Source: a plasmid. Taken from it: a stretch of 41,714 nucleotides of DNA. The stretch lies in assembly GCF_055900595.2 (NCBI RefSeq), contig NZ_JBVWEU010000004.1; one strand, given 5' to 3'. The notes under the pieces are model-generated. The model was not told the DNA's origin, searched no databases, and worked only from the letters and a program-made list of their open reading frames with translations. Shown here one piece after another: positions 1 through 41,714 of the stretch. Both the position numbers and the translations under genes were made by a program. Every line of letters starts with the position of its first letter. Positions within the stretch are counted from its first letter, which is position 1.

Positions 1-867
1 ATGGGAAAGAGGTCAAGTTCAGTTCTCAATTATCCACTTGTGGATAAAGTGCAGATTTTTCCGGTGGATAAGTATCGCGATAGCTTGCAATTTCTGTTTT
101 CACTGTCATTATGGGTGGGTAAAAATTTACCCATAGGCATTGAAATGGATACTCAAGCACTCTTGCCAGCTACTAAAACGTTTAAAAAACGCGCCAGTAT
201 AAAGCAATCTAACGAATTGACCGAAGCTGCATATTACCTGCCTCTTCAGGCAAAACGTGTGCTGTGGTTATGCCTCATGCAGGCCTATTTTAATGACAGC
301 CAGGAAGATGACTCTGACGTATTGCCGCTCTTCAAAATCAGCGTTTCCGATTACGTCAAATACTTCAATGTCGCTACGTCTGTCGCCAGTCGTGATGTGA
401 AGGCTGGGGTAAATGCTCTGGGCGAATCAACGGTTACCTTTTATCCAAAAGAAGGTGAGTTTGAAGAAGTTAAACGTCCGTGGCTGGCTGAAGCAGGAAT
501 GAAGCGAGGCCGGGGTTCCTGGCAGATTGAATTTAACTACAAGGTCATGCCATTCCTGGTCGGCTTAACCTCCCAGTTCACTACCTATTCTCTCTATGAC
601 TGTGGCCAGCTTAATAGTGTTCGTGTCATCCGGCTTTATGAAAGCCTGTGTCAGTTCCGGAGCACTGGTGTCTGGATCACCACACATGACTGGTTATGTG
701 AAAGGTTTATGCTCCCTGCCTCGCAGAAAAACAATATTGCTGAAATGAAGCGTACCTTCCTGGAACCTGCTCTGAAGAAAATTAATGAGAAGACGCCATT
801 AAAGGTAACATATACCACTGAAGAAGATGGTCGCTTGCTGTTTAATTTTCTTGATAAAAAACAATAG
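1..867 (+). CDS. repA: RepE/RepA-family iteron-binding replication initiator (F RepFIA RepE-like)
   Basis: 288-aa ORF; KKRASIKQSNELTEAAYYL and RLYESLCQFR segments match my recollection of F RepE; followed by an iteron array. The true start may be the internal Met at 145 (240 aa, closer to RepE length), since 1-144 carries DnaA-box-like and iteron-like sequence. Confidence 0.8.
   Translation: MGKRSSSVLNYPLVDKVQIFPVDKYRDSLQFLFSLSLWVGKNLPIGIEMDTQALLPATKTFKKRASIKQSNELTEAAYYLPLQAKRVLWLCLMQAYFNDSQEDDSDVLPLFKISVSDYVKYFNVATSVASRDVKAGVNALGESTVTFYPKEGEFEEVKRPWLAEAGMKRGRGSWQIEFNYKVMPFLVGLTSQFTTYSLYDCGQLNSVRVIRLYESLCQFRSTGVWITTHDWLCERFMLPASQKNNIAEMKRTFLEPALKKINEKTPLKVTYTTEEDGRLLFNFLDKKQ
30..72. promoter_or_regulatory. 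DnaA-box-like palindrome TTATCCAC-TT-GTGGATAA (30-47) plus GTGGATAAG (64-72) in the rep leader; candidate rep operator
   Basis: Seen directly in sequence; an operator overlapping the rep promoter is typical of RepE-type replicons. Confidence 0.4.
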
Positions 868-929
868 TCTGTAATTTTTATTTCCTCCCCCCTTAGTTTG
901 TTGCTGACATATGGGGGGATACTGAACTT

Positions 930-1337
930 GCTGTGTTTCCCATAGTGCTTGCCTAACTTGACCTGTTTCCCACACTCCCGACCGTCCGAGAAGTTGACCT
1001 GTTTCCCATAGTCCGGGCCGTCCGAGAAGCTGACCTGTTTCCCTTAGTCCGGGCCGTCCGCGAAGTTGACCTGTTCCCCACACTCCCGGCCGCCCGCGAA
1101 GTTGACCTGTTTCCCACAGTCCGGGCCGTCTGCAAAGTTGACCTGTTTCCCACAGTCCCGGCCGCCCGCGAAGTTGACCTGTTTCCCATAATCCGGGCCG
1201 TCCGCGAAGTTGACCTGTTCCCCACACTCCCGGCCGCCCGTGAAGTTGACCTGTTTCCCATAGTCCGGGCCGTCCGCGAAGTTGACCTGTTTCCCATAGT
1301 CCGGAGCGTCCATTAAAGTTGACCTGTTTCCCACAGA
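930..1337. repeat. Eleven direct 36-bp iterons (AAGTTGACCTGTTTCCCA core) downstream of rep; incC-like copy-control/incompatibility array
   Basis: Exact 36-bp periodicity (core at 955, 991, 1027 ... 1315), with two alternating unit variants. Confidence 0.85.
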
Positions 1338-1681
1338 GGATGGAAAACTCTTCTTGTGCTGAGCGTAAGAGCTATCTGCCGGAACGGTTCCTCTTCGCTT
1401 CCTCGCCAGTTCGCTCGCTACGCTCGGTTACATGGCTGCGGCGAGCGCTGATACATAAGGCTCAGCATTGCACTGGTCGTAACTAAAATCAGAATCCTTC
1501 TGAATGACTCTCCTGTCTTGCAAGTTGAATACCTTTCTCAAAGCCCTTTTGTATGAGTTGCTGTTGATGGTCAAAAGTGCGTCTGCGTGTTGCTGCAGTG
1601 TGATTTAGTAGCACGCCCGTCGAGCTTCATCCCCCTTCTGTTGAGAGCGAAATCAAAACAATATGATTTTTTTTCTTGCAA

Positions 1682-1719
1682 CATGACACTTTTTGTTCAA
1701 AATGACAAAAAACGTCATG
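1682..1719. promoter_or_regulatory. 38-bp imperfect palindrome just upstream of parA; candidate autoregulatory operator
   Basis: CATGACACTTTTTGTTCAAAATGACAAAAAACGTCATG is close to its own reverse complement and ends 10 bp before the parA ATG. Confidence 0.4.
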
Positions 1720-1728
1720 AGGTGATAA

Positions 1729-2934
1729 ATGGACAATATTGAGCAGTTACGGAAAGTCGCTACACGTGCAGGTAAGCTTCTGACATCTTTGAGCGAAAGT
1801 ATCCGACAGCAAAAAGAGGAATTGAAGCTTACCGAGTTCTATCAGGAATACAGCAAAGCCGCTCTGTATAAGCTGCCTAAGCTCAGTAAAGGCAGTGTTG
1901 AGTATGCTGTGTCCGAAATGGAAGCCGGTGGCTACATTTTTAAAAAGAAACCTTCTGGTAATACGATGAAATACGCGATGACGATTCAGAATGTCATCGA
2001 TCTGTATAACCATCGTAAAGTACCGAAGTACAGGGATCGCTTCGATAAAGCCTTTACGATTTTTGTATGTAATCTTAAAGGTGGTGGTTCCAAGACAGTT
2101 TCTACCGCTTCATTATCACATGCTTTTCGAGCTCATCCTCAGCTTCTGTTCGAAGACCTGCGTATTCTGGCCATCGATTTCGATCCGCAGGCATCTCTGA
2201 CAATGTTCCTGAGCCATGAGAATTCAGTGGGCTTGGTTGAAAATACGGCTGCTCAGGCCATGCTCCAGAACGTGTCTCGTGAAGAATTACTTTCCGATTT
2301 TATAGTACCGTCTATTATCCCTGGTGTTGATGTAATCCCCGCTTCCATTGACGATGCATTCCTTGCTGAAGGCTGGAAGGGATTGTGTGAAGAACATCTG
2401 CCAGGGAAAAATATTCATGCGGTGCTTAAAGAGAACATTATCGACAAGCTCCAGCATGACTACGACTTTATTTTCCTTGATAGTGGTCCTCACCTTGATG
2501 CGTTCCTGAAAAACTGCATTGGGGCGGCAGACCTGATGTTGACCCCTCTTCCACCGGCGACGGTTGATTTTCATTCTTCCCTGAAGTTTGTGGCCAGCCT
2601 CCCTGCCCTCATAGATTCCATCGAAATGGATGGGCACACCTGCAATCTCATCGGTAATGTCGGCTTCATGTCCAAGATCCTGAACAAGTCTGATCACAAA
2701 ATTTGCCATAGTCAGGCCAAAGAGGTTTTCGGTGCCGATATGCTAGACATGGTTCTGCCAAGACTGGATGGTTTCGAACGTTGTGGGGAGACTTTTGACA
2801 CAGTTATTTCAGCAAATCCAGCAACCTATGATGGAAGTACAGAGGCACTAAAAAGCGCAAAATCAGCAGCGGAAGACTTTGCGAAGGCAGTCTTTGATCG
2901 CATCGAGTTCATTCGTACTAACGGAGGTATGTGA
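1729..2934 (+). CDS. parA: Type Ia partition ATPase ParA (P1 ParA / F SopA family)
   Basis: 401 aa; deviant Walker A KGGGSKT; long N-terminal extension typical of type Ia ParA; overlaps parB by 4 bp. Confidence 0.9.
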   Translation: MDNIEQLRKVATRAGKLLTSLSESIRQQKEELKLTEFYQEYSKAALYKLPKLSKGSVEYAVSEMEAGGYIFKKKPSGNTMKYAMTIQNVIDLYNHRKVPKYRDRFDKAFTIFVCNLKGGGSKTVSTASLSHAFRAHPQLLFEDLRILAIDFDPQASLTMFLSHENSVGLVENTAAQAMLQNVSREELLSDFIVPSIIPGVDVIPASIDDAFLAEGWKGLCEEHLPGKNIHAVLKENIIDKLQHDYDFIFLDSGPHLDAFLKNCIGAADLMLTPLPPATVDFHSSLKFVASLPALIDSIEMDGHTCNLIGNVGFMSKILNKSDHKICHSQAKEVFGADMLDMVLPRLDGFERCGETFDTVISANPATYDGSTEALKSAKSAAEDFAKAVFDRIEFIRTNGGM

Positions 2935-3908
2935 TGTCGAATGAGAAAAGAAAAACCATCGGCAGACAGTTAAATACCCAGGCGTCAATTGCGGAAATGA
3001 CGGACACCGGTAGAAGCCAGGTATTTACCTTAAAAACCGGCAGGAAGGTAACGTTCAGGTTTGTTCGGGTGCCTGCATCTGAAGTTGAAAGTAAGACCTT
3101 CGTAAACCAGGAAAACAACGGAAGAGATCAACTTGCACTGACCAGGGAATCCCTGAAATCCATTATCCAGACGATTAAGTTTCAGCAGTTCTTTCCCTGT
3201 ATTGGTATTAAGCAAAGTGAAAGGATTGAGATACTGGATGGTTCAAGACGGCGAGCCTCAGCAATTTTTGTCCGTACAGGCCTTGATGTAATGGTTACCG
3301 AAGAGCATTTATCAGCTGATGAAGCTCGCCAACTGGCTAAAGATATCCAGACAGCTAAAGAACATAATCTTCGGGAGATTGGCCTGAGATTGATCGCTCT
3401 TAAAGAGTCCGGATTTAATCAAAAGGAAATTGCTGAACTGGAGGGGTTATCTCAAGCTAAAGTTACCAGGGCGCTGCAGGCGGCGGCCGTACCGCAAGAC
3501 TTGATTTCTCTGTTCCCGGTTCAGTCGGAGCTATCGTTTAGTGACTATAAACTTCTTTTAGAAGTTAATGAAAAACTCAGTGAAAAGGGATTAACGCCTG
3601 AAGAACTCATTCAGTCTGTATCAGCTCAGCTCGATGCAATTTTGAGTGAAGGCGAGCGACCAGAAGACGAACAGAAAGCCAGTATACTGAAGCTGATTTC
3701 TCAGGCATCTCAGGCATTGATAGATCCATCTCCCAAGGAAAAGTCAGTGGTTTCCCCACTCTGGTCTTTTGAAGAAAAGGACAAGTTCGCGCGTAAGCGT
3801 GTGAAAGGGCGTACGCTGACTTATGAGTTTAGCCGTATGTCAAAAGTGATTCAGGATGAACTGGACAAGGCTATCAACGAGGTCCTTGACAGAAATTTGA
3901 GTCAATAA
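2931..3908 (+). CDS. parB: Partition centromere-binding protein ParB
   Basis: 325 aa; GSRR motif (ILDGSRRRAS) characteristic of ParB/SopB; translationally coupled to parA. Confidence 0.85.
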   Translation: MMSNEKRKTIGRQLNTQASIAEMTDTGRSQVFTLKTGRKVTFRFVRVPASEVESKTFVNQENNGRDQLALTRESLKSIIQTIKFQQFFPCIGIKQSERIEILDGSRRRASAIFVRTGLDVMVTEEHLSADEARQLAKDIQTAKEHNLREIGLRLIALKESGFNQKEIAELEGLSQAKVTRALQAAAVPQDLISLFPVQSELSFSDYKLLLEVNEKLSEKGLTPEELIQSVSAQLDAILSEGERPEDEQKASILKLISQASQALIDPSPKEKSVVSPLWSFEEKDKFARKRVKGRTLTYEFSRMSKVIQDELDKAINEVLDRNLSQ

Positions 3909-3985
3909 TTTCGCCATGGCGATTTCACATCTAACTTATTGTAATTAGGCAGTTTAGGCTGAGAATTTCAAGGTGAAATCGCCAA
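3909..3985. promoter_or_regulatory. parS: P1-type parS centromere (heptamer box A ATTTCAC and hexamer box B TCGCCA in inverted arrangement)
   Basis: TCGCCA at 3912-3917 and ATTTCAC at 3922-3928; GTGAAATCGCCA at 3973-3984; the 11-bp arms GGCGATTTCAC / GTGAAATCGCC flank an AT-rich 44-bp spacer. Matches my recollection of P1 parS. Confidence 0.6.
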
Positions 3986-3989
3986 AGTT

Positions 3990-5261
3990 TTACGCCAGTT
4001 TCGCTGAAGGAATATCTGACCATCGTGTCGTATAAGCAGGAGAAAGCATCTCCCGTTTCATCTGCCATTCCGGGGCAATACCCCGCCCCGCAAACCATAC
4101 TTTACCCAGCCCTGAGTTGTTGATCCCGTCCAGAACCTTCATCAGCTCAGCACTGTAAGGGCGTGGCGGGCGTTCGTCGAACAGCTGCAGCTGCGAAACG
4201 CCGGAGCCGGTGAAGTCATTCAGCATAACTCCGGCTTTGGCATACCGGTGCCCATCCCTCCAGATACGCTCCAGAGCCGTTGTAGCGGCTGCAATGATGT
4301 CCCTGGTGTCCTGAGTGGGTGTAAGAAGTTTTTCCGTAGCCACGTTGCCGTAGTAAGGCTCTTTAATGGCGAACGGAGACGTTTTGATGAAAACGGAAAT
4401 ATGCCGGCAATACTGGTGCTCTTTACGCAGTTTTTCAGAGGCCCGCTCTGCGTGCTGACAGATAGCCTGACGGAGTGACTCGTACTCCGTGATCTTCACG
4501 CCAAAACTGCGGCTGCAGACAATTTGCTGTTTCGTCGGAGGGGCTTCCTCAAGCGAAAGGCAGCTTTCCCCGTTCAGTTCCCGTACCGTTCGCTCAAGGA
4601 CCACAGAAAAATTTTTGCGGATGAAGGCCGGGTTCGTCAGGGCGAGATCGAGCGCGGTCTTAATGCCCAGTACATTCAGCTTGCGTGCAATACGGTTACC
4701 CACCCCCCAGATTTCTTCAACCGGCTGCAGTGAAAGCAGTTTCCGCGTTCTCTGCGGATTTCCCCTGGTCAGAGCAAGTACGCCACGAAACTGTTTCCAC
4801 TCTTTTGAGGCCCACTGGGCTGATTTTGCGAGGGTCTTCGTTGGTCCGGCGCCCACGCCAATGGTCAGGTGGGTACAGTCATACACGTGCTGACGCAGCT
4901 GCCGGCCGAAGTCCTCAAGCTCCATACAGTGCTCCACGCCGGTCAAATCGAGGAACATCTCATCAATTGAATACTGTTCCACTCTGGGGGCCAGTTCCTC
5001 CAGGCTGTTCATCACGCGCGCCAACATCGAGGCATAAAGTTCATAGTTACTTGAAAACGCATATATTTTTTCCGGGTATCTTTCGTTTTTTATCTGAAAC
5101 CACGGAGTTTCCATTTTGATCCAGGGCTTCGCCTCGGCACTGCGAGCGATTACATTCCCGTCGTTGTTGCTCAGGACGACTATCGGCTTTCCTTTCAAAT
5201 CCGGGCGGAAAACACGTTCACAGCTGGCATAGAAGCTGTTCACATCGGCCAGGGCAAACAT
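3990..5261 (-). CDS. umuC: Error-prone translesion polymerase subunit UmuC (Pol V catalytic subunit, Y-family)
   Basis: 423 aa; N-terminus [22 protein letters not shown] is typical of UmuC/MucB; start overlaps the umuD stop. Confidence 0.9.
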
Positions 5262-5692
5262 CAGTACATCTCCCTCGGGCGGTGGATGATATGCGTGACG
5301 ACGCCAAAGATATCCAGCTCGTCGGGATCAGGATAAATCGGCGACCAGGAGGCATTCATGGGCTGCAGCGTCAGTCGCGGCGTCAGCAGAAGCCGTTTCA
5401 CCGTAAACTCCCCCTGCATGCTGGCGACAACGATATCGCCGTGCCGCGGCTTTTCAGCACTGTCCACAACCAGCAGATCGCCATTGTACAGACTGCCGTC
5501 GGCCATGCTGTCTCCGCTGGCACGCAGGTAGTACGTCGCGCTCGGATGCCGTATGCAGTAATCATGGAGATCCAGATCGGACTCGACATAGTCAGCAGCA
5601 GGGCTGGGAAAACCGCAGCTGGCCAGATCGGCAAACAATGGATGGGCCTGTGGCGGGAGTTCTTTCCCGGTGCTGAAAAGTTGTAGTTTCAT
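5261..5692 (-). CDS. umuD: UmuD (S24 LexA-like self-cleaving protein, Pol V accessory subunit)
   Basis: 143 aa from MKLQLF; [12 protein letters not shown] and the GDSM Ser/Lys dyad region; Shine-Dalgarno AGGAGG upstream. The ORF track over-extends it to 270 aa. Confidence 0.85.
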
Positions 5693-5716
5693 CTTTCCTC
5701 CTGACACTCTAATTTT

Positions 5717-5739: not shown

Positions 5740-7680
5740 CCGGGAGACCGGTAGAGATCAAGGGGTGAAAGTCCCCGACCATTGAAGGACCAGCAATCCA
5801 CAAGGTCCCCGAGTCATGCGTTGCATACCGCGAGGTATGGGGCGAAGCGTTGACAGGGGTGTTGACAGGCCAGCCATTGAGCCACGAAATGTATATTAAA
5901 TTACCGGGTGCCGACGTTGTACTGTTAACGGAAGGCAACATCATAGGGTGCGATACTGCGAGTGCCACATGGACCCGGCGGGGTCTGAGACCCTGGCATG
6001 TCAATACGATCTCTACGCGGGAACCGGGAGATCTCCCCTCTGACCATCTGCCAGTGTCGGAGACGGCCCGCACCGGGAAGACGAGGAGTCATAGCCGGTG
6101 ATGTACGGAGAGGAGAAGTCGGACTCGCTCATAGTAGCGGCGAAGCAGGCGAACAACCCGAAAGGAGCGGAGTCAGTGGAGCGAAGGAGCGGGGCCAAGG
6201 GGAACGCGGAACAGCCACACATGCGCCGGACACAGAGCCGGGAAAGCATGTCACAGAGGCTGTCACGCGTGCGGGAAGCTGCGAAGCAGCGGAAGAAAGA
6301 ACGGTTTACAGCATTGTTCCACCTGCTGACAGTCGAAGCACTGGAAGCCGCATTCCTCTCCCTGAGCAGGAAAGCGGCCGCCGGAGTGGATGGCATCAGG
6401 TGGATGGACTACGCCGGAAACATGAAGAACAACATAACAGATCTGCACCGGAGGCTACATTAGGGCAGCTACAGGGCGCAGCCCGGCAGGCGTCACTACA
6501 TCCCAAAAGCGGATGGAAAACAACGCCCGCTCGGCATCGCCTCGCTGGAGGACAAGATCGTCCAGTATGCGCTGGTGAAAATCCTGAACGCAGTCTATGA
6601 AAACGACTTTATGGGGTTCTCATACGGGTTCAGACCCGGGCGAAGCCAGCACGATGCACTGGACGCACTGGCCACAGGGCTGGTACGCACTAACGTAAAC
6701 TGGGTACTGGATGCCGACATCAGTCAGTTCTTCGACAGGGTGAGCCACGAATGGCTGATCAGGTTCACAGAGCATCGGATCGGCGACCGGAGCGTAATCA
6801 GGCTCATACGTAAGTGGCTCACAGCCGGGACGTTGGAGGAGGGTCAATGGCGAGCAACGGAGGAAGGCACCCCACAGGGTGCGGTCATCTCACCGCTGCT
6901 GGCAAACATATACCTCCACTACGTCTTCGATCTGTGGGCGCATCAGTGGCGACGTCGCTATGCCACAGGCAATGTGGTAATGGTCAGATACGCCGATGAC
7001 ATCGTCATCGGGTTCGACAAACGATACGATGCCCGGCGCTTCCGTATAGCCATGCAGCGCAGACTGAGGGAGTTCGGACTCACGGTTCACCCGGAGAAAA
7101 CCCGTCTGATGGAGTTCGGCCGCTTCGCTGCCGAAAACCGTGCCATCAGGGGAAAAGGCAAACCAGAAACGTTCAACTTCCTCGGGTTCACGCACATCAG
7201 CGGGAAAGATCGCAACGGCAGGTTCATGCTGATACGAAAGACCCGCCGGGATCGGATGACGGCAACTCTGAAAGCCATCAAAGACGGTCTGCGAAGGCGC
7301 TGGCATTACTCAATCCCCGAACAGGGAAAATGGCTCAGGAGAGTGGTTCAGGGATACCTGAACTATCACTCGGTACCGGGCAACTTCCCCACCATGCAGA
7401 AGTTCAGGACACACGTAACAAACCTCTGGCGCCGGGCGCTCAGGCGCAGGAGCCAGAAGGATGATACGACCTGGACGAAAGCAAACAAACTGGCAGCCGC
7501 ATGGCTACCAAGGGTTCGGGTTCTTCATCCATGGCCTGTGGAGCGGTTCACCGCCAGACACCCGAGGCAGGAGCCCGGTGCGTAAATCGCGCACGCCGGG
7601 ATCTGTGCGGGGGGTATCCGGTAACGGGTATCCCTACCGCGACATATTTAACAGCGTGACGATAATCCAGATCGCCTGCC
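5740..7680 (+). mobile_element. Group II intron remnant (maturase-encoding; 5' RNA domains probably truncated, 3' end abuts IS1)
   Basis: Reverse transcriptase/maturase ORF with structured GC-rich RNA-like sequence on both sides; only about 360 nt lie between the LexA box and the ORF start, less than a typical domain I-III. Confidence 0.6.
6098..7588 (+). pseudogene. Group II intron reverse transcriptase/maturase interrupted by an in-frame TAG at 6464-6466
   Basis: ORFs 6098-6463 and 6575-7585 are in the same frame; translation across the gap reads ...[38 protein letters not shown]..., i.e. one stop codon inside a contiguous RT domain; YADD motif present downstream. Confidence 0.75.
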
Positions 7681-7736
7681 GGATAATGGTGCCAACTTAC
7701 TGATTTAGTGTACGATGGTGTCTTTGAGGTGCTCCA

Positions 7737-8012
7737 GTGGCTTCCATCTCCATCAGTTGTCCCTCCTGCTCAGCTACTGAAGGCGTGGTGCGTAACGGTA
7801 AAAGTACTGCCGGACATCAGCGCTATCTCTGCTCTCACTGCCGTAAAACATGGCAGCTACAGTTCACTTACACCGCCTCTCAGCCCGGTACGCACCAGAA
7901 AATCATTGATATGGCCATGAATGGCGTTGGATGCCGGGCAACCGCCCGCATTATGGGCGTTGGCCTCAACACGATTTTACGTCACTTAAAAAACTCAGAC
8001 CGCAGTCGGTAA
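7737..8012 (+). CDS. insA: IS1 InsA
   Basis: 91 aa, [40 protein letters not shown] zinc-finger N-terminus. Confidence 0.9.
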
Positions 8013-8434
8013 CCTCACGCATACAACCGGGCAGTGACGTCATTGTCTGCGCGGAAATGGACGAACAGTGGGGCTACGTCGGGGCTAAATCACGTCAGCG
8101 CTGGTTATTTTACGCCTATGGCAGGATGTGCAGGACGGTGGTGGCACGCGTCTTTGGTGAGCGTACTCTGGCCACGCTGGAGCGTCTTCCGGGCCTGCTG
8201 TCGGCCTTTGAGGTCGTGGTATGGATGACGGATGGCTGGCCGCTTTATGAATCCCGCCTGAAGGGAGAACTGCACGTTATCAGCAAGCGATATACGCAGC
8301 GAATTGAGCGGCATAACCAGAATCTGAGGCAGCATCTGGCAAGGCTGGGCAGGAAGTCACTGTCGTTCTCAAAATCGGTGGCGCTGCATGACAAAGTCAT
8401 CGGGCATTATCTGAACATAAAACACTATCAGTAA
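7931..8434 (+). CDS. insB: IS1 InsB' frame (expressed as an InsAB' transposase fusion by -1 frameshift)
   Basis: 167-aa ORF overlapping the insA 3' end in the -1 frame, standard IS1 organisation. Confidence 0.8.
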
Positions 8435-8448
8435 GTTGGAGTCATTAC

Positions 8449-8752
8449 CAACCAGTTCACCACCTACTCGCTCCGCGATTGTGGCAGTCTTCGAAATCCC
8501 CGGACGATCCGCCTTTATGAAAGTCTTGCTCAATTCAAATCTTCAGGCTTATGGGTTACTACTCATGCTTGGTTAAATGACCGTTTCGTCTTACCGGAAT
8601 CCCAGCAGAAGAACTTGGCAGAGTTGAAACGATCTTTCCTTGATCCTGCACTCAAGCAGATAAATGAGAAAACACCTTTACTTGCTAAGTATAGTATTGA
8701 TGATTCAGGAAAATTTCTGTTCTCAATAATTGATAAGCAAAATCCCGTCTGA
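8449..8752 (+). pseudogene. 3' fragment (about 97 codons) of a second RepE-family rep gene, truncated by IS1
   Basis: Frame starting at 8462 translates ...TYSLRDCGSLRNPRTIRLYESLAQFKSSGLWVTTHAWLNDRFVLPESQQKNLAELKRSFLDPALKQINEKTPL..., paralogous to the C-terminus of the rep at 1-867; no start codon, begins at the IS1 end. Confidence 0.7.
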
Positions 8753-35916: not shown

Positions 35917-36572
35917 AGGTCTTCACCTCGTTAGGTCAGTTAATTCACGTCGCAAACACATTCAAACTGCTTCCCTTCGCCATGTAATGGGCTTTCCCCA
36001 TCGCGGACTACTACGGAAGCTCCGCCAGCCAGCGCGTCATCGGAGCCATGCCCCCTTAACATCCGTCGCTGACCTTCCCCGGTTTACCTGCCTGGACTCA
36101 GGCATACTGAGGAGGCTGCCCGTCGCACTCTTTATCCTTGCTTGCCGCAAGTTGGCAGAAGTCAGCAACGCAAGCGTGATAGACGCTGCTGCCCCGGTGT
36201 TTCGCATACATGTCAAAACACCTTCGACCGGCAGTGCTTACGTATCACTGCCAGTTCCTCCTGCACGGCCTGTCAGATCACGTAGGCCGTGGTGACGTTT
36301 TCAACCCACAGAGGCGGATTAACGGGTTCATGTTCTTCAGCCTTTCAGTACTTAACCTTGAGGATCATCTCGGCTTAGTGATCTCGCCTCAATCCCCGTT
36401 GTCAGCGGGTTACATCACCCTGCGGGCATGCCGCAGGTCACTGCCGCTCAGGTTCTCCACCGTCACACCCGGTGGGATTGTTGGGTTTCTCATCGTGAGT
36501 TACCGGTTCAATATTCCAGACAGACTCGCGGTTCATTTAAGCATCCATGCCCGCCCTGAACTCCGGGCACAC
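34885..36572 (-). mobile_element. Group II intron, 5' end intact (GUGUG), 3' part removed by IS26
   Basis: Minus-strand sequence begins GTGTGCCCGGAG exactly where IS3-family orfB homology stops; about 656 nt of structured RNA, then the maturase ORF; ends abruptly at the IS26 IR. Confidence 0.7.
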
Positions 36573-36927
36573 TGTAGGTGATGTCGGTGACCCACACCTG
36601 ATTGGGCTTCACTACAGTAAATTCACGCCGCACGTGATTAGGCGCTATCAGTGACGGTCGTCCCCGGCTCCCGCGTGGCACTTTATAACCATGTATAGCC
36701 TGAATCCTGTTTTTCCTCATGATTTTGGCAACCCGGTTTCTGCTGCACACTTCGCCAATTTCGCGAAGATCGCCATGAACCCTGCGATAACCGTAAACTC
36801 CACCACTCAGCGTATAGGAGTCGCGGATGAGTTCCAGCAGTCGCTGGTTATCCTTTTCTCCGGCAGATACAGGGTTATGGAGCCAGACATAAAATCCGGC
36901 ACGGGCAACCTTAAGGACCCGACACAT
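36573..36927 (-). pseudogene. IS3-family transposase OrfB N-terminal fragment interrupted by group II intron insertion
   Basis: Frame matches IS3-family OrfB up to ...VWVTDITY, then reads into intron sequence. Confidence 0.75.
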
Positions 36928-36974
36928 TGTAACGATCGACCAGATTTCACGGTGATCGTTGATAAAGCGATACT

Positions 36975-37259
36975 TCAGTCGGGCTCCCTTGCAAAGTACC
37001 GCGCTGCCTTTTTCAGAATATCCCGCTCTTCCTCAGTGCGTTTAAGCTGTGCTTTCAGCCTGAGAATTTCTGTTCTGGCATCCAGTAAATCCTGTGCCTG
37101 CTGTCCACTGTTGTCAGGCTTAACAGCCCGGAGCCATTTATATAGGCTGTGCGCCGACACGCCGAGCCGTTCAGATACTTCAGCAATAGAATAGCCCCGC
37201 TCGGTGATCTGGCGGACGGCCTCTTCCTTAAATTCAGGGGTAAAACGTGATGTGCCCAT
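36975..37259 (-). CDS. IS3-family transposase OrfA (HTH)
   Basis: 94 aa, MGTSRFTPEFKEEAVRQITERGYSIAEVSERLGVS. Confidence 0.85.
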   Translation of the reverse strand: MGTSRFTPEFKEEAVRQITERGYSIAEVSERLGVSAHSLYKWLRAVKPDNSGQQAQDLLDARTEILRLKAQLKRTEEERDILKKAARYFAREPD

Positions 37260-37502: not shown

Positions 37503-37919
37503 TTATTTCACCCAGTCTTCCAGCACCAGGCCCGGGACCCGCGCAAACTCTCTCACATTGTTCGTCACCAGGATGGCGCCCGCCGCGATGGCGTGCCCGG
37601 CAATGGCCGTGTCATTCGGGCCGATCGGCGTCCCGGCTAGGCGCAGCGCCACCCGGATGTCCGTCGTGGCGTCCACCGCGGCGCGGTCCCAGGGCAGGAC
37701 GGCATCGAGGCGCGCGCAGAACGCGTCGACCAGCTGAATATGGCGCGGCGAGGCCTTCGGGCCGGTGGCGCCGAAGCGCATCTCGGCATATGTCACGGCC
37801 GAGACCACGATGCGATCACCGCGCAGCACCGCCTGCTCCAGGCGCTTCAGCACCGCTGCCGGCTGCTCGCGCATGATGAACGAGCAGATGTTAGTATCGA
37901 GCATCCAGGTTTTCTTCAT
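37503..37919 (-). CDS. vapC: VapC PIN-domain toxin
   Basis: 138 aa; PIN acidic residues (MLDTNI...); overlaps vapB by 4 bp. Confidence 0.85.
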   Translation of the reverse strand: MKKTWMLDTNICSFIMREQPAAVLKRLEQAVLRGDRIVVSAVTYAEMRFGATGPKASPRHIQLVDAFCARLDAVLPWDRAAVDATTDIRVALRLAGTPIGPNDTAIAGHAIAAGAILVTNNVREFARVPGLVLEDWVK

Positions 37920-38146
37920 GGCTCAAAACGTCCTTCATCGCTGACCACATCCTCACGCTCCGCCATAAAGTCCGGATCGGCCCTGTCCAGCTGCGCGAAC
38001 GAGCCCCAGGTCGGCCGGACGGGACGCAGAATGATGCTGTCCCCTTCCCGGACGATCTCCAGCTCGCTGACGCCGTCAAAATCCAGGTCCCGGGGCAGAC
38101 GGATGGCGCGGTTATTGCCGTTTTTAAATATCGAAACTGTGCGCAT
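37916..38146 (-). CDS. vapB: VapB antitoxin (AbrB/SpoVT family)
   Basis: 76 aa, MRTVSIFKNGNNRAIRLPRDL; closely resembles plasmid VagC/MvpT antitoxins as I recall them. Confidence 0.85.
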   Translation of the reverse strand: MRTVSIFKNGNNRAIRLPRDLDFDGVSELEIVREGDSIILRPVRPTWGSFAQLDRADPDFMAEREDVVSDEGRFEP

Positions 38147-38719
38147 GGTTTTTCCTCATATGCTGAGTGTGCCAGGGAGTATTCCCGCATAGGTGAAGTA
38201 TATGCCTGCAAGCCCGGCTTGTATAGGTGTTACATATGCAGATGGTAGGTATATGCGTATGCTTTGCCTATGCAGATGCCCGGCATATGGATATGTTACA
38301 CCTATGTTGGTTTCTCACTTTTCCCGCTCAGATCCGAAAAAAGGCAGTTCCGGATCTGATTCAGCCCCGCCGGCGCGCAGCGGCCCGGAAACACAAGATG
38401 TAGCGGTGTTTCCAGCTGTCAGTGACCATATATGTTGTGTCCCTCCCCTGCCCCGTGACCGGCCGCTCACCACCCTGAAAGGGCGCTGTGGTTATTCCGT
38501 GTGCGTGGTACACTTCCGGAAACTGTGGAATAACATAAAAGTCGGATCCGGCCAGAGCGGCCGTCAGGTAATTTAATTACGTTGTTATATGGCTGCTTAT
38601 TATTTTAGTATGTGAAAATCACTCTAGTGAAAGTCACTGTCACGACAGAGTGGCACTCATCTGACGATGATTGAGGTGTGGTAAAATTGCACGGCTAACT
38701 ATTCAACTGAGGAAAGGAC

Positions 38720-39070
38720 ATGTTTACTGCATTCAATGAGAGAAATGATTTCAGTTATGCTTTTGAAAAAATCCGTAATGCGATTTCCGCGCCAGGAGAA
38801 AATAATCTTTATGCTGCAACAGAATTAGGTCTTGGCATTCTGCTCCGTAAATACGAGCAGTTTCGCCAGGAACTGGATGCGGCCGGTGAGCTGGGAAACT
38901 GGGAATATGATCTCGATACCTACAATCACTGTATTGCGGTGCTGCAACGTTACTTCACCGGCAATCCATCCGGACTGACAGAACGTGATGCCCGGATTTA
39001 CAGCCATTACCTGCAGACTGAGCACAAAAGGTTTGTGAAACTGGCTGAAGAGCTGGCTGCCGGCCGCTGA
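38720..39070 (+). CDS. Hypothetical protein (116 aa), first gene of an uncharacterised operon
   Basis: Clean ORF; no recognisable motif; acidic, predicted soluble. Confidence 0.5.
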   Translation: MFTAFNERNDFSYAFEKIRNAISAPGENNLYAATELGLGILLRKYEQFRQELDAAGELGNWEYDLDTYNHCIAVLQRYFTGNPSGLTERDARIYSHYLQTEHKRFVKLAEELAAGR

Positions 39071-39120
39071 CTACGGACAGAGGGCGGGATTTCTCAGGAA
39101 TATAAAGGGGTAAATGATCA

Positions 39121-39864
39121 ATGACTGATATACAGGCCGCAACTGAGAGTATAGTTGCTGCGACATCCCATCCGGTTTCCGTACAGCTGATTAATCAAGG
39201 GGCGGGGATCTGGGGAAACGTGGCAACCGGGCTTATCACTGGCCTGCTTACTGGGGGTATAACACTCACTGGCATCTGGCTGACACATTATTTCACGCTT
39301 AAGCGTGAGAGACAGGCGTCAGAAGATAAAATGAAAAAGGAACTGCATTACATTGCCACCGAGTTGGTATTCATGCTTGAACGGTATGCTGAGGGTTGTT
39401 TCCGGGTTGTGACGGATGACGGCCAGGATGATGATGCCCCCCAGCCTGAGAGAAAAGCTGTCACGAATTACCCTGAACTGAATCTGATCGATGTCTCCGG
39501 TGACTGGCGGACTTTAGAGCCACGTCTTATGTATCGCATCCGTGAACTGCCGGTGCTCCAGGATGAGGCCCACAGGGCAATTGCATATGCCGCCGAATAC
39601 TCCGACCCTCCTTGGCATAAGGACTATTTCAGGGAACGGCAGTATCAGTTCACGCGCTTGGGCATCAACGCTGTCATTCTTGCCGTCCGTCTGCGCAAGG
39701 CAACCGGGATGCCCGAAACACGTCTTACAGGTCATGATGAATGGTCTGCAGTTTCCGTGTTTCGTAAAGTCTGGAGGCGCGAAAGAGCCCTGCGCGCTGC
39801 TGAAGCTACCCGCAACAGGGAGTGGAATCAATTAGTGATACCTGATGGAATGTCAAACCAATGA
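39121..39864 (+). CDS. Hypothetical membrane-anchored protein (247 aa)
   Basis: One predicted transmembrane helix (GNVATGLITGLLTGGITLTGIWLTHYF) followed by a charged domain; stop overlaps the recombinase start (ATGA). Confidence 0.55.
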   Translation: MTDIQAATESIVAATSHPVSVQLINQGAGIWGNVATGLITGLLTGGITLTGIWLTHYFTLKRERQASEDKMKKELHYIATELVFMLERYAEGCFRVVTDDGQDDDAPQPERKAVTNYPELNLIDVSGDWRTLEPRLMYRIRELPVLQDEAHRAIAYAAEYSDPPWHKDYFRERQYQFTRLGINAVILAVRLRKATGMPETRLTGHDEWSAVSVFRKVWRRERALRAAEATRNREWNQLVIPDGMSNQ

Positions 39865-40637
39865 GCGGCCTCTTATCATATTCTCACCCGCAGCAGCCGG
39901 CGCAAATGCCGGTGGCCATTGACTATCCCGCCGCGCTGGCCCTGCGCCAGATGGCGCTCGTTCAAGATGAACTACCGAAATACCTGCTGGCACCGGAAGT
40001 CAGCGCCCTGCTCCATTATGTGCCCGATTTGCACCGCAAGATGCTGCTGGCAACCCTCTGGAACACCGGCGCACGTATCAACGAGGCGCTGGCGCTGACC
40101 CGGGGGGATTTTTCGCTGGTGCCACCGTATCCGTTCGTGCAGCTGGCCACGCTTAAGCAGCGCACCGAAAAAGCGGCCAGGACAGCCGGCCGAGCTCCCG
40201 CCGGTAGCCAGGCTCATCGTCTGGTTCCGCTTTCCGATCACCACTACGTCAGCCAGCTGCAGATGATGGTGGCCACCCTGAAAATTCCGCTGGAAAGACG
40301 CAACAAGCGTACCGGCAGAACAGAGAAAGCCCGCATCTGGGACATCACCGACCGGACAGTACGGACCTGGATTGGCGAAGCGGTTGAAGCGGCCGCCGTC
40401 GACGGGGTGACATTCTCGGTGCCGGTCACCCCGCATACGTTCCGCCACTCCTACGCGATGCATATGCTGTATGCCGGCATACCACTGAAGGTTTTGCAGA
40501 GCCTGATGGGCCACAAATCGATTAGCTCGACGGAAGTCTATACGAAGGTGTTCGCACTTGATGTTGCTGCGCGGCATCGAGTTCAGTTTCAGATGCCCGA
40601 AGCGGATGCGGTAGCCATGCTGAAAGGGAATATTTAA
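39861..40637 (+). CDS. Tyrosine site-specific recombinase (Xer/ResD-like; possible plasmid multimer resolvase)
   Basis: 258 aa; conserved C-terminal catalytic region HTFRHSYAMHML ... LMGHKSISSTEVYTKV (R-H-R-Y family). Confidence 0.8.
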   Translation: MSGLLSYSHPQQPAQMPVAIDYPAALALRQMALVQDELPKYLLAPEVSALLHYVPDLHRKMLLATLWNTGARINEALALTRGDFSLVPPYPFVQLATLKQRTEKAARTAGRAPAGSQAHRLVPLSDHHYVSQLQMMVATLKIPLERRNKRTGRTEKARIWDITDRTVRTWIGEAVEAAAVDGVTFSVPVTPHTFRHSYAMHMLYAGIPLKVLQSLMGHKSISSTEVYTKVFALDVAARHRVQFQMPEADAVAMLKGNI

Positions 40638-40694: not shown

Positions 40695-40952
40695 TTATCT
40701 GGACCAGCTGACGGGAATATCTGCTCTGTATTCTTCATACTGCTCATAGATCGCATGCTGAAGCATCGTAATACGTTCTGACAACCTGTTGGCGTCCGAC
40801 ATATGCCGCCATTCCCCCTCAATAGTGGTTTTCTGTCCATCCGGGAGATTGAGCGTGATCAATACCTTTGTATCACGAATAATCACCCCGTCAGTGAAAG
40901 AATTAAGACCACTCCTTACGGTATTATCTATCTGTATAGTTTCAAGTTTCAT
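40695..40952 (-). CDS. Hypothetical small protein (85 aa)
   Basis: Strong Shine-Dalgarno (AGGAGGTAACAAG) 7 bp upstream of ATG; no recognisable domain. Confidence 0.45.
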   Translation of the reverse strand: MKLETIQIDNTVRSGLNSFTDGVIIRDTKVLITLNLPDGQKTTIEGEWRHMSDANRLSERITMLQHAIYEQYEEYRADIPVSWSR

Positions 40953-41510
40953 CTTGTTACCTCCTGTTGACCGGATCCCAAGCATAGATATCTGAATTCA
41001 AATTGCCTAGTGAAATGTCTGGATATGCCGCATTTTTCCCCTTATACAGCGAAGCTGGCCAAAGGCCAGCCCGCTTGGATTTATCGCTTTTGCCAGTAAA
41101 TCAGCATGGCAAGGAACAGGATTGTTGCCCCCTGAGAAGCGGTCAGGAAAGTTTCCAGCAATGACATTATCGTAAAACTCCGCATTATTCAGGTGTGTGA
41201 TTCAGGGGCCTTAGTCCCCCTTTTACAGGACGTAGTGTTCTGTCACGACGGAAGCCAGGGTTAATAAAAACGATTCGAATATGTCTGCAGGGACGATAGA
41301 AATCTTCGTGCGGGTTGTCTCGCTGTAGCCGGCTCTGGAGAGCGACTCGGGGGAGGAGTAGTATCTTCCGGCCACGGATATGATCGAGCCAGCAGTGCTC
41401 GCCGCAGTCGAGCGACAGGGCGAAGCCCCGAGTGAGCGAGGAAGCACCAGGGAACAAAACTTATAAATTCTGCTTACGCTCAATGCCTGAAAAATCACCT
41501 CCCCTCGGGG

Positions 41511-41626: not shown

Positions 41627-41714
41627 ATGGGCAACTGGTAAACATAATATGGGAAATTAATCACGTATCAGTGGGTTTTGTGTCAACAAGCTATGGGATA
41701 TGCATCAACAAGCT
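41627..41714. repeat. Four 22-bp iteron-like units each starting (A/G)TGGG; a fifth unit would be 1-22 if the sequence is circular
   Basis: ATGGG/GTGGG at 41627, 41649, 41671, 41693, and the window starts ATGGG exactly 22 bp after the last; units 3 and 4 share TCAACAAGCT. Confidence 0.45.

Follow-up and report, generated by a model that had tools for sequence, protein, structure and literature searches.

The window analysed here, 41,714 nt of plasmid DNA (NCBI RefSeq assembly GCF_055900595.2, contig NZ_JBVWEU010000004.1), carries a run of three co-oriented genes, orf116, orf247 and resD, the last of which encodes a small tyrosine recombinase, together with upstream DNA in which we place the likely recombination site rfsF. 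An original prediction, made from the sequence alone, had described a 116-aa protein, a 247-aa membrane protein and a 258-aa recombinase at this locus, and the three open reading frames (ORFs) were found exactly so, all on the plus strand; they are given below with the candidate site and the block of conserved DNA beside it.

38328-38359, no strand assigned: candidate rfsF crossover core, TCAGATCCGAAA-AAAGGCAG-TTCCGGATCTGA, from comparison with F, pSLT and other loci.
38360-38603, plus strand: conserved rfsF-proximal block, common to the oriV1/ccd upstream DNA of F, from an 11-sequence alignment that includes F and pSLT.
38720-39070, plus strand: orf116, 116 aa, from the ORF list.
39121-39864, plus strand: orf247, 247 aa, from the ORF list.
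39861-40637, plus strand: resD, 258-aa tyrosine recombinase, from the ORF list.

A spacer of 50 nt separates orf116 from orf247, and the predicted overlap between the membrane-protein stop and the recombinase start is present as ATGA, with the same 4-nt overlap recurring in 11 of 17 intact orf247-resD junctions among related loci; a Shine-Dalgarno motif of its own was not evident upstream of the resD start. Hundreds of IncR plasmids, pEFER and pCAV1417-67 among them, contain the whole segment at 99.9% identity, and this recurrence places it beyond chance; the whole region was present in at least 890 plasmid records. The annotated order in IncR plasmids is vapC-vapB, two hypothetical proteins, a 'site-specific integrase' or 'resolvase', a further hypothetical protein, repB, parAB and umuCD. 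The expectation that the locus was previously undescribed did not survive, as it belongs to the IncR backbone and is annotated in the literature as rfsF-resD beside vagCD (PMC9412624, PMC7707992); rfsF-resD is annotated in IncR plasmids in PMC9412624, Oliva et al. give 'rfsF-resD' adjoining vagCD in IncR plasmids, and resD is named as the multimer-resolution gene in IncR reviews. We are confident in reading the locus as the module for multimer resolution by rfsF and ResD in the IncR backbone.

The recombinase was rightly taken for a small plasmid resolvase, being ResD, with 92% identity to F ResD and 90% identity to pSLT RsdB (each over 244 aa). The Pfam domain PF00589 (Phage_integrase) spans residues 41-230 only (E 1.7e-17), the protein aligns with positions 95-279 of the XerD profile, and just 40 residues precede the catalytic domain. 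Its motifs TGARINE, HTFRHS and GHKSISSTEVYTKV align with the XerC/XerD active-site regions. Judged by these alignments, ResD is a tyrosine recombinase with a catalytic domain alone, and that domain is intact. A second small tyrosine recombinase of 246 aa was seen beside the RepFIB repB of F (locus L046, 35618-36358, RepFIB region), an adjacency that echoes that of resD and repB in IncR plasmids.

The candidate site was derived by comparing F, pSLT and some 20 other loci, and its conserved form is AGATCCG-N14-CGGATCT, which is kept in F, pSLT and about 15 other loci (most of the related loci) and occurs once in the window against 0.01 copies expected. The F core starts at nt 45922, the nucleotide at which Phan et al. 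(2015) have the RepFIA region of F start; in the matching pEC958 region, the same authors list the rfsF sites first. Breaks in homology were mapped in 60 plasmid records taken at even intervals along the ranking: in 10 of them the match to the window ended at 38340-38346, with vapBC, the repeats and the left arm retained, and in 7 others it started at 38319-38330. Breakpoints inside the core are the pattern expected from crossover at a site-specific recombination site, and 38328-38359 is likely to be rfsF and the ResD target. The upstream repeats (38200-38310), which had been put forward as a possible recombinase target or vapB operator, are probably not the crossover site, since the conserved core lies at 38328-38359 instead and the repeats go with vapBC.

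To the right of the core, the block alignment contains four invariant motifs.

38504-38522, plus strand: invariant motif CGTGGTACACTTCCGGAAA, from the conserved block alignment.
38537-38548, plus strand: invariant motif AAAGTCGGATC, from the same alignment.
38567-38576, plus strand: invariant motif GGTAATTTAA, from the same alignment.
38593-38603, plus strand: invariant motif CTGCTTATTAT, from the same alignment.

The last of these, CTGCTTATTAT, may hold a -10 element, and blastn homology, at 68-98%, stops sharply behind it, at 38603, in many loci. From this point to resD codons 13-16 (about 39900), the DNA is unrelated between lineages while both flanks are 70-98% identical by blastn. We are confident, from these alignments, that the interval between rfsF and resD is a recurrent variable cargo slot. 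F matches the IncR locus in its core and in the conserved motifs that lead from there to the first gene, holds ccdAB in the slot and has resD distal, abutting the preceding gene; the two uncharacterised IncR genes, which had been said to stand where a toxin-antitoxin module would sit, do occupy the place of ccdAB in F. The cargo itself differs, CcdAB being a gyrase-poison toxin-antitoxin pair, whereas the IncR cargo is an unrelated four-helix protein and a membrane protein. In the crs/rsd region of pSLT/pSDL2, with the same core and conserved block, the operon is ccdAB-PSLT029-PSLT030-rsdB-PSLT032, so that ccdAB, absent from the IncR slot, is followed by two uncharacterised genes lying, as in IncR, between the operon start and the resolvase; vapBC is not adjacent there, unlike in IncR. 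The pSLT genes ccdAB-029-030-rsdB-032 form one polycistronic transcript by RT-PCR, which is CcdAB-regulated (PMC5065971). In IncI1 R64, an annotated rfsF is followed by a small 137-aa gene that ends 1 nt before resD. We considered PSLT029/PSLT030 and the R64 137-aa protein as homologues of orf116 or orf247, and rejected both (hhalign probability <1% for the pSLT genes, and 0.2% for the R64 protein with orf247); an integron-like cassette array was also rejected, with one rfsF-like core found per locus and none at the orf247/resD boundary. The locus is a variant of the known ccd-resD type of operon with different cargo; the DNA, the recombinase and the site were already known, and the present comparison adds a position for rfsF at the sequence level, the cargo slot as a recurrent feature and the linkage of orf247 to resD.

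The second cargo gene, orf247, encodes a protein with a single hydrophobic, Gly/Thr-rich segment at about residues 30-55 (transmembrane sequence VATGLITGLLTGGITLTGI), and AlphaFold2 modelled a helix over residues 33-97 with a mean pLDDT of 83. It is predicted to cross the membrane once, N-out/C-in, through a glycine-zipper-like helix and to have its helical bundle in the cytoplasm; the C-terminal tail is basic. Searches of Pfam, NCBIfam and PDB sequences gave no match for it, and neither an enzyme-like nor a DNA-binding fold was detected in the model; a role as a holin was rejected, as only weak matches, to the transmembrane segment, were obtained. The original prediction had assigned neither unknown protein to a family, which holds for orf116, where PHROG 36524 is the only family matched, and fails for orf247, which matches PHROG 33426 and, over residues 47-236, positions 6-195 of the 203 in PADLOC PDC-S67 (E 3.6e-45), both families being uncharacterised. 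In PADLOC, PDC entries have the status of candidates, and PDC-S67 is one that consists of a single gene; in the IncR-type members the N-terminus is longer by about 40 residues and the gene is fused into the resD operon. At 50% identity, the orf247 family falls into 1039 clusters, and PDC-S67 is matched by each of ten distant relatives, down to E 4.5e-74. Distant members of the family lie on prophages and integrative elements, not beside tyrosine recombinases; one is part of a two-gene prophage moron (126 aa + 231 aa), a second sits beside a large serine recombinase at an element edge, and a third belongs to a pair of 99 aa + 203 aa.

Within Enterobacterales, our survey covered 24 loci with an orf247 homologue at 30-54% identity, and a resD gene or remnant lay directly 3' of orf247 in 20 of them. 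In a neighbour-joining tree, built with a midpoint root and no bootstrap support, ResD of F and of pSLT, both linked to ccdAB, branch from within the orf247-linked ResD proteins, which suggests that orf247-resD is the older arrangement. Such persistent linkage also bears on the main alternative to a toxin-like cargo, namely that orf247, alone or together with the small protein, would serve ResD recombination as an accessory or regulatory factor, through tethering or timing at the membrane or septum or by making up for the absent core-binding domain. The pair persists down to ResD identities of 62-70% and orf247 identities of about 40%, in most cases with the 4-nt overlap, and both the shortness of the ResD N-terminus (the 40 residues noted above) and the basic tail of orf247 would fit such a role. 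Nevertheless, F has no homologue of orf116 or orf247 by profile search, yet its ResD/rfsF is described as a dimer-resolution system; the slot directly before resD in pSLT and R64 (the comparison covers the slot only) holds unrelated genes, most PDC-S67 members are far from any tyrosine recombinase, and a DNA-binding fold, as stated, was not seen in the orf247 model. We consider an accessory role for orf247 unlikely. Separately, on a Kosakonia chromosome island (locus L007), a co-oriented 384-aa gene with a weak Endonuc-like_C Pfam match follows resD after 19 nt (7536-8690), and two small genes (108 and 102 aa) precede the orf247 homologue.

The first cargo gene behaves differently from orf247. 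The orf116 protein is acidic (pI 5.35) and free of hydrophobic segments, and its model is a four-helix bundle with a pLDDT of 95 whose structural matches are generic only; no Pfam, NCBIfam or PADLOC family was found for it. A four-helix bundle beside a recombinase that lacks an N-terminal domain raised the idea that orf116 supplies the absent core-binding (SAM-like) domain of ResD in trans, and a faint Pfam match to Phage_int_SAM_4 (E 0.047, residues 66-103) points the same way. That match is not significant, however, unrelated small proteins replace orf116 beside equally conserved ResD, and F has no homologue, so that this explanation is largely refuted and in our judgement very improbable. 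Almost every resD-linked locus has a gene of about 100 aa in the first slot position, drawn from one of at least five mutually unrelated families, which are scattered over the orf247 tree with no co-phylogeny. In the plasmid pLP50, orf116 is 97% identical and orf247 36% identical to the gene in the window, and DNA homology between the two breaks off at 39114, in the orf116-orf247 spacer. The swapping of families, the lack of co-phylogeny and the spacer break in pLP50 indicate separable modules and not a co-evolving pair; the suggestion that the unknown pair is conserved as a unit with the recombinase was thus not borne out, as orf247 stays with resD and the small gene is exchanged. On the basis of the model and of these comparisons, orf116 is predicted to be a cytoplasmic four-helix-bundle protein and an interchangeable first cargo gene. 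Another occupant of the first position is a 119-aa protein found in a Raoultella IncFII plasmid (locus L003, 2985-3344) and in Pantoea rodasii (L025); for the Raoultella protein an assignment to HamC (DUF3223; accessory of some Hachiman loci) was rejected, the PADLOC match being weak (E 2e-4) and Pfam not confirming it.

The same exchange raises the question of whether the two cargo genes act together at all. They may be independent accessory or selfish genes (for example for exclusion or anti-defence), carried by exchange between the rfsF block and resD: shuffling of the small gene is independent of that of orf247, the spacer holds the breakpoint at 39114, base composition is uneven (orf116 47% GC, orf247 52%, resD 59% and vapBC 64%), and frameshifted or truncated copies occur in several loci. 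Against this, orf247 reading frames are intact across many genera, and a gene of about 100 aa stands directly ahead of orf247-family genes, both at nearly every resD-linked locus and in distant members from prophages and metagenomes, which hints that a two-gene format recurs. We regard the absence of any joint function as unlikely.

Overall, the best explanation in our view, held with about even confidence, is an rfsF-ResD resolution module that carries a membrane-acting stability or abortive-infection cargo. ResD presumably acts at the AGATCCG-N14-CGGATCT core and turns plasmid dimers into monomers, and resD would be the last gene of a transcription unit starting in the conserved block right of rfsF, from a putative promoter and with presumed co-transcription in IncR plasmids. 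The small-residue-rich transmembrane helix of orf247 would oligomerise and damage or gate the inner membrane, the outcome being either plasmid stabilisation (by post-segregational or dimer-linked killing) or abortive-infection defence, a role of the kind that ccdAB has in the same slot, and whichever small gene comes first would act as a modulator or be cargo in its own right. The assignment of orf247 to such a cargo is made by analogy and at low confidence, and it draws on four observations: orf247 sits in the place of ccdAB in F, ccdAB apparently displaced orf247 in one lineage, the family spreads on mobile elements as a small-plus-large gene pair, and the transmembrane helix is small-residue-rich, as in oligomerising pore-formers. 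The arrangement of orf116 and orf247 also has the format of a toxin-antitoxin system (two adjacent co-oriented small genes, the putative antitoxin first); a comparison with known toxin or antitoxin families gave no significant Pfam, NCBIfam or PDB sequence match for either protein.

Several points weigh against a membrane-acting cargo of this kind. The small gene does not co-vary with orf247, unlike in a cognate toxin-antitoxin pair; vapBC already adjoins the locus on the same plasmid; orf247 showed no homology to a toxic or defence protein; and PDC-S67 is unvalidated, with no mention of it in the papers searched. The deep linkage of orf247 to resD could instead reflect a recombination-related role, and the promoter and operon structure in IncR plasmids are putative. 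A more specific proposal, which we hold to be distinctly unlikely, is that orf247 and its small partner form a new class of membrane killing or arrest module, tied to plasmid state through an rfsF/ResD-controlled promoter, which would be a functional analogue of ccd penalising plasmid loss, unresolved dimers or phage; orf247-resD would then be ancestral, with ccdAB having displaced it in F/pSLT.

The features left of the core lie on the side of the neighbouring vapBC genes.

38187-38306, no strand assigned: 17-bp repeat array of seven units, containing an inverted pair, from Tandem Repeats Finder (TRF), period 17.
37916-38146, divergent, left of the three-gene unit: vapB.
37503-37919, divergent, left of the three-gene unit: vapC.

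The predicted cluster of upstream repeats with an imperfect inverted pair is real. It consists of the 17-bp array and a 40-nt imperfect inverted repeat (spanning 38223-38305, 75% complementary), to which the inverted pair ATAGGTGTTACATAT / ATATGTTACACCTAT at 38223-38237 and 38291-38305 belongs. Six of the seven array units fit GNRKAKGNNNNNNMTAT in register, with an array consensus of about GCAKATG-N6-ATAT; the GNRKAKGNNNNNNMTAT pattern has 10 matches in the window on both strands against 0.55 expected, a count that is not independent, as the pattern was drawn from the same units. The array is found left of the core, on the side of vapBC. Pantoea and Mixta loci retain it together with vapBC, in unchanged register and at about 82% identity, and it is missing from the Kluyvera locus L016, of IncR type without vapBC; among the examined loci, the array co-occurs with vapBC adjoining rfsF. 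A sigma-70-like site for vapB lies inside the array on the minus strand (38225-38197). We assign the array to the vapBC side on these grounds, namely its retention in register with vapBC, its absence where vapBC is missing and the promoter-like site within it. In several records with vapBC copies at about 85% identity, homology was not detectable past the vapB start, and TRF found no 17-bp array upstream of the pSLT core. An Rfam scan of the intergenic region returned only a chance miRNA match, over the inverted repeat. The array could be the vapBC promoter/operator region or resolution-accessory DNA.

Between the conserved block and orf116, two further features were recorded in the leader.

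38612-38637, plus strand: two 11-bp palindromes, GTGAAAATCAC and GTGAAAGTCAC, 15 bp apart, in the cargo-specific leader (repeat family D4).
38679-38687, plus strand: possible extended -10, TGgTAAAAT, read from the sequence, 33 nt upstream of orf116.

The identical Kluyvera copy has both palindromes, pLP50 retains one, and the remaining orf116-family loci have neither; GTGAAAATCAC and GTGAAAGTCAC may form an operator. Related loci have GATAAT/GACTAT elements at the same distance as the possible extended -10. Promoter calls upstream of orf116 were made manually, and a strict consensus sigma-70 scan returned no promoter for orf116 and did not pick up TGgTAAAAT. Otherwise different leaders (window 38604-38720 and loci L003, L007, L017 and L019) share GTGAnnnT(C/T)AC, GATGATT(T/G) and GG(T/G)(A/G)ATAATT ahead of the first slot gene, a hint at common regulatory input despite different cargo.

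With regard to the wider window, it seems probable that it is a complete, circularly permuted IncR plasmid opening with repB-parAB-umuCD. Positions 1-5700 hold first an 867-nt, repB-sized ORF and then ORFs of the size of parA, parB, umuC and umuD, and the terminal short repeats GTCAACAAGCT / ATCAACAAGCT at 41650-41714 resemble repB iterons. On the far side of vapC, pieces of an IS3-family transposase (36508-37259, minus strand; a 94-aa orfA and a truncated orfB) abut the gene, in agreement with the degraded insertion sequence (IS) cluster beside vagCD in IncR plasmids (Oliva et al.). Just 3' of resD, a convergent 96-aa ORF (40695-40985, minus strand), annotated as an 85-aa hypothetical protein, matches PHROG 31850 and is found next to resD at 100% identity in pSTB20-1T, pEcl2-3 and a Kluyvera contig.

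IncR and IncF plasmids have a major part in carrying antibiotic resistance in Klebsiella and E. coli, and an orf247-family protein is encoded in about 2000 of 72,556 plasmid records, with orf116 in 1608. Both genes lie in the core region for plasmid maintenance, in most cases with translational coupling to the resolvase, and rfsF is now positioned at the sequence level in IncR plasmids, where the recurrent rfsF-resD cargo slot helps to account for the mosaicism of these plasmids. If true, activity of orf247 would validate a PADLOC candidate family of about 1000 clusters, and if orf247 is a stability or abortive-infection determinant, plasmid curing and the host range of phage therapy would be affected.

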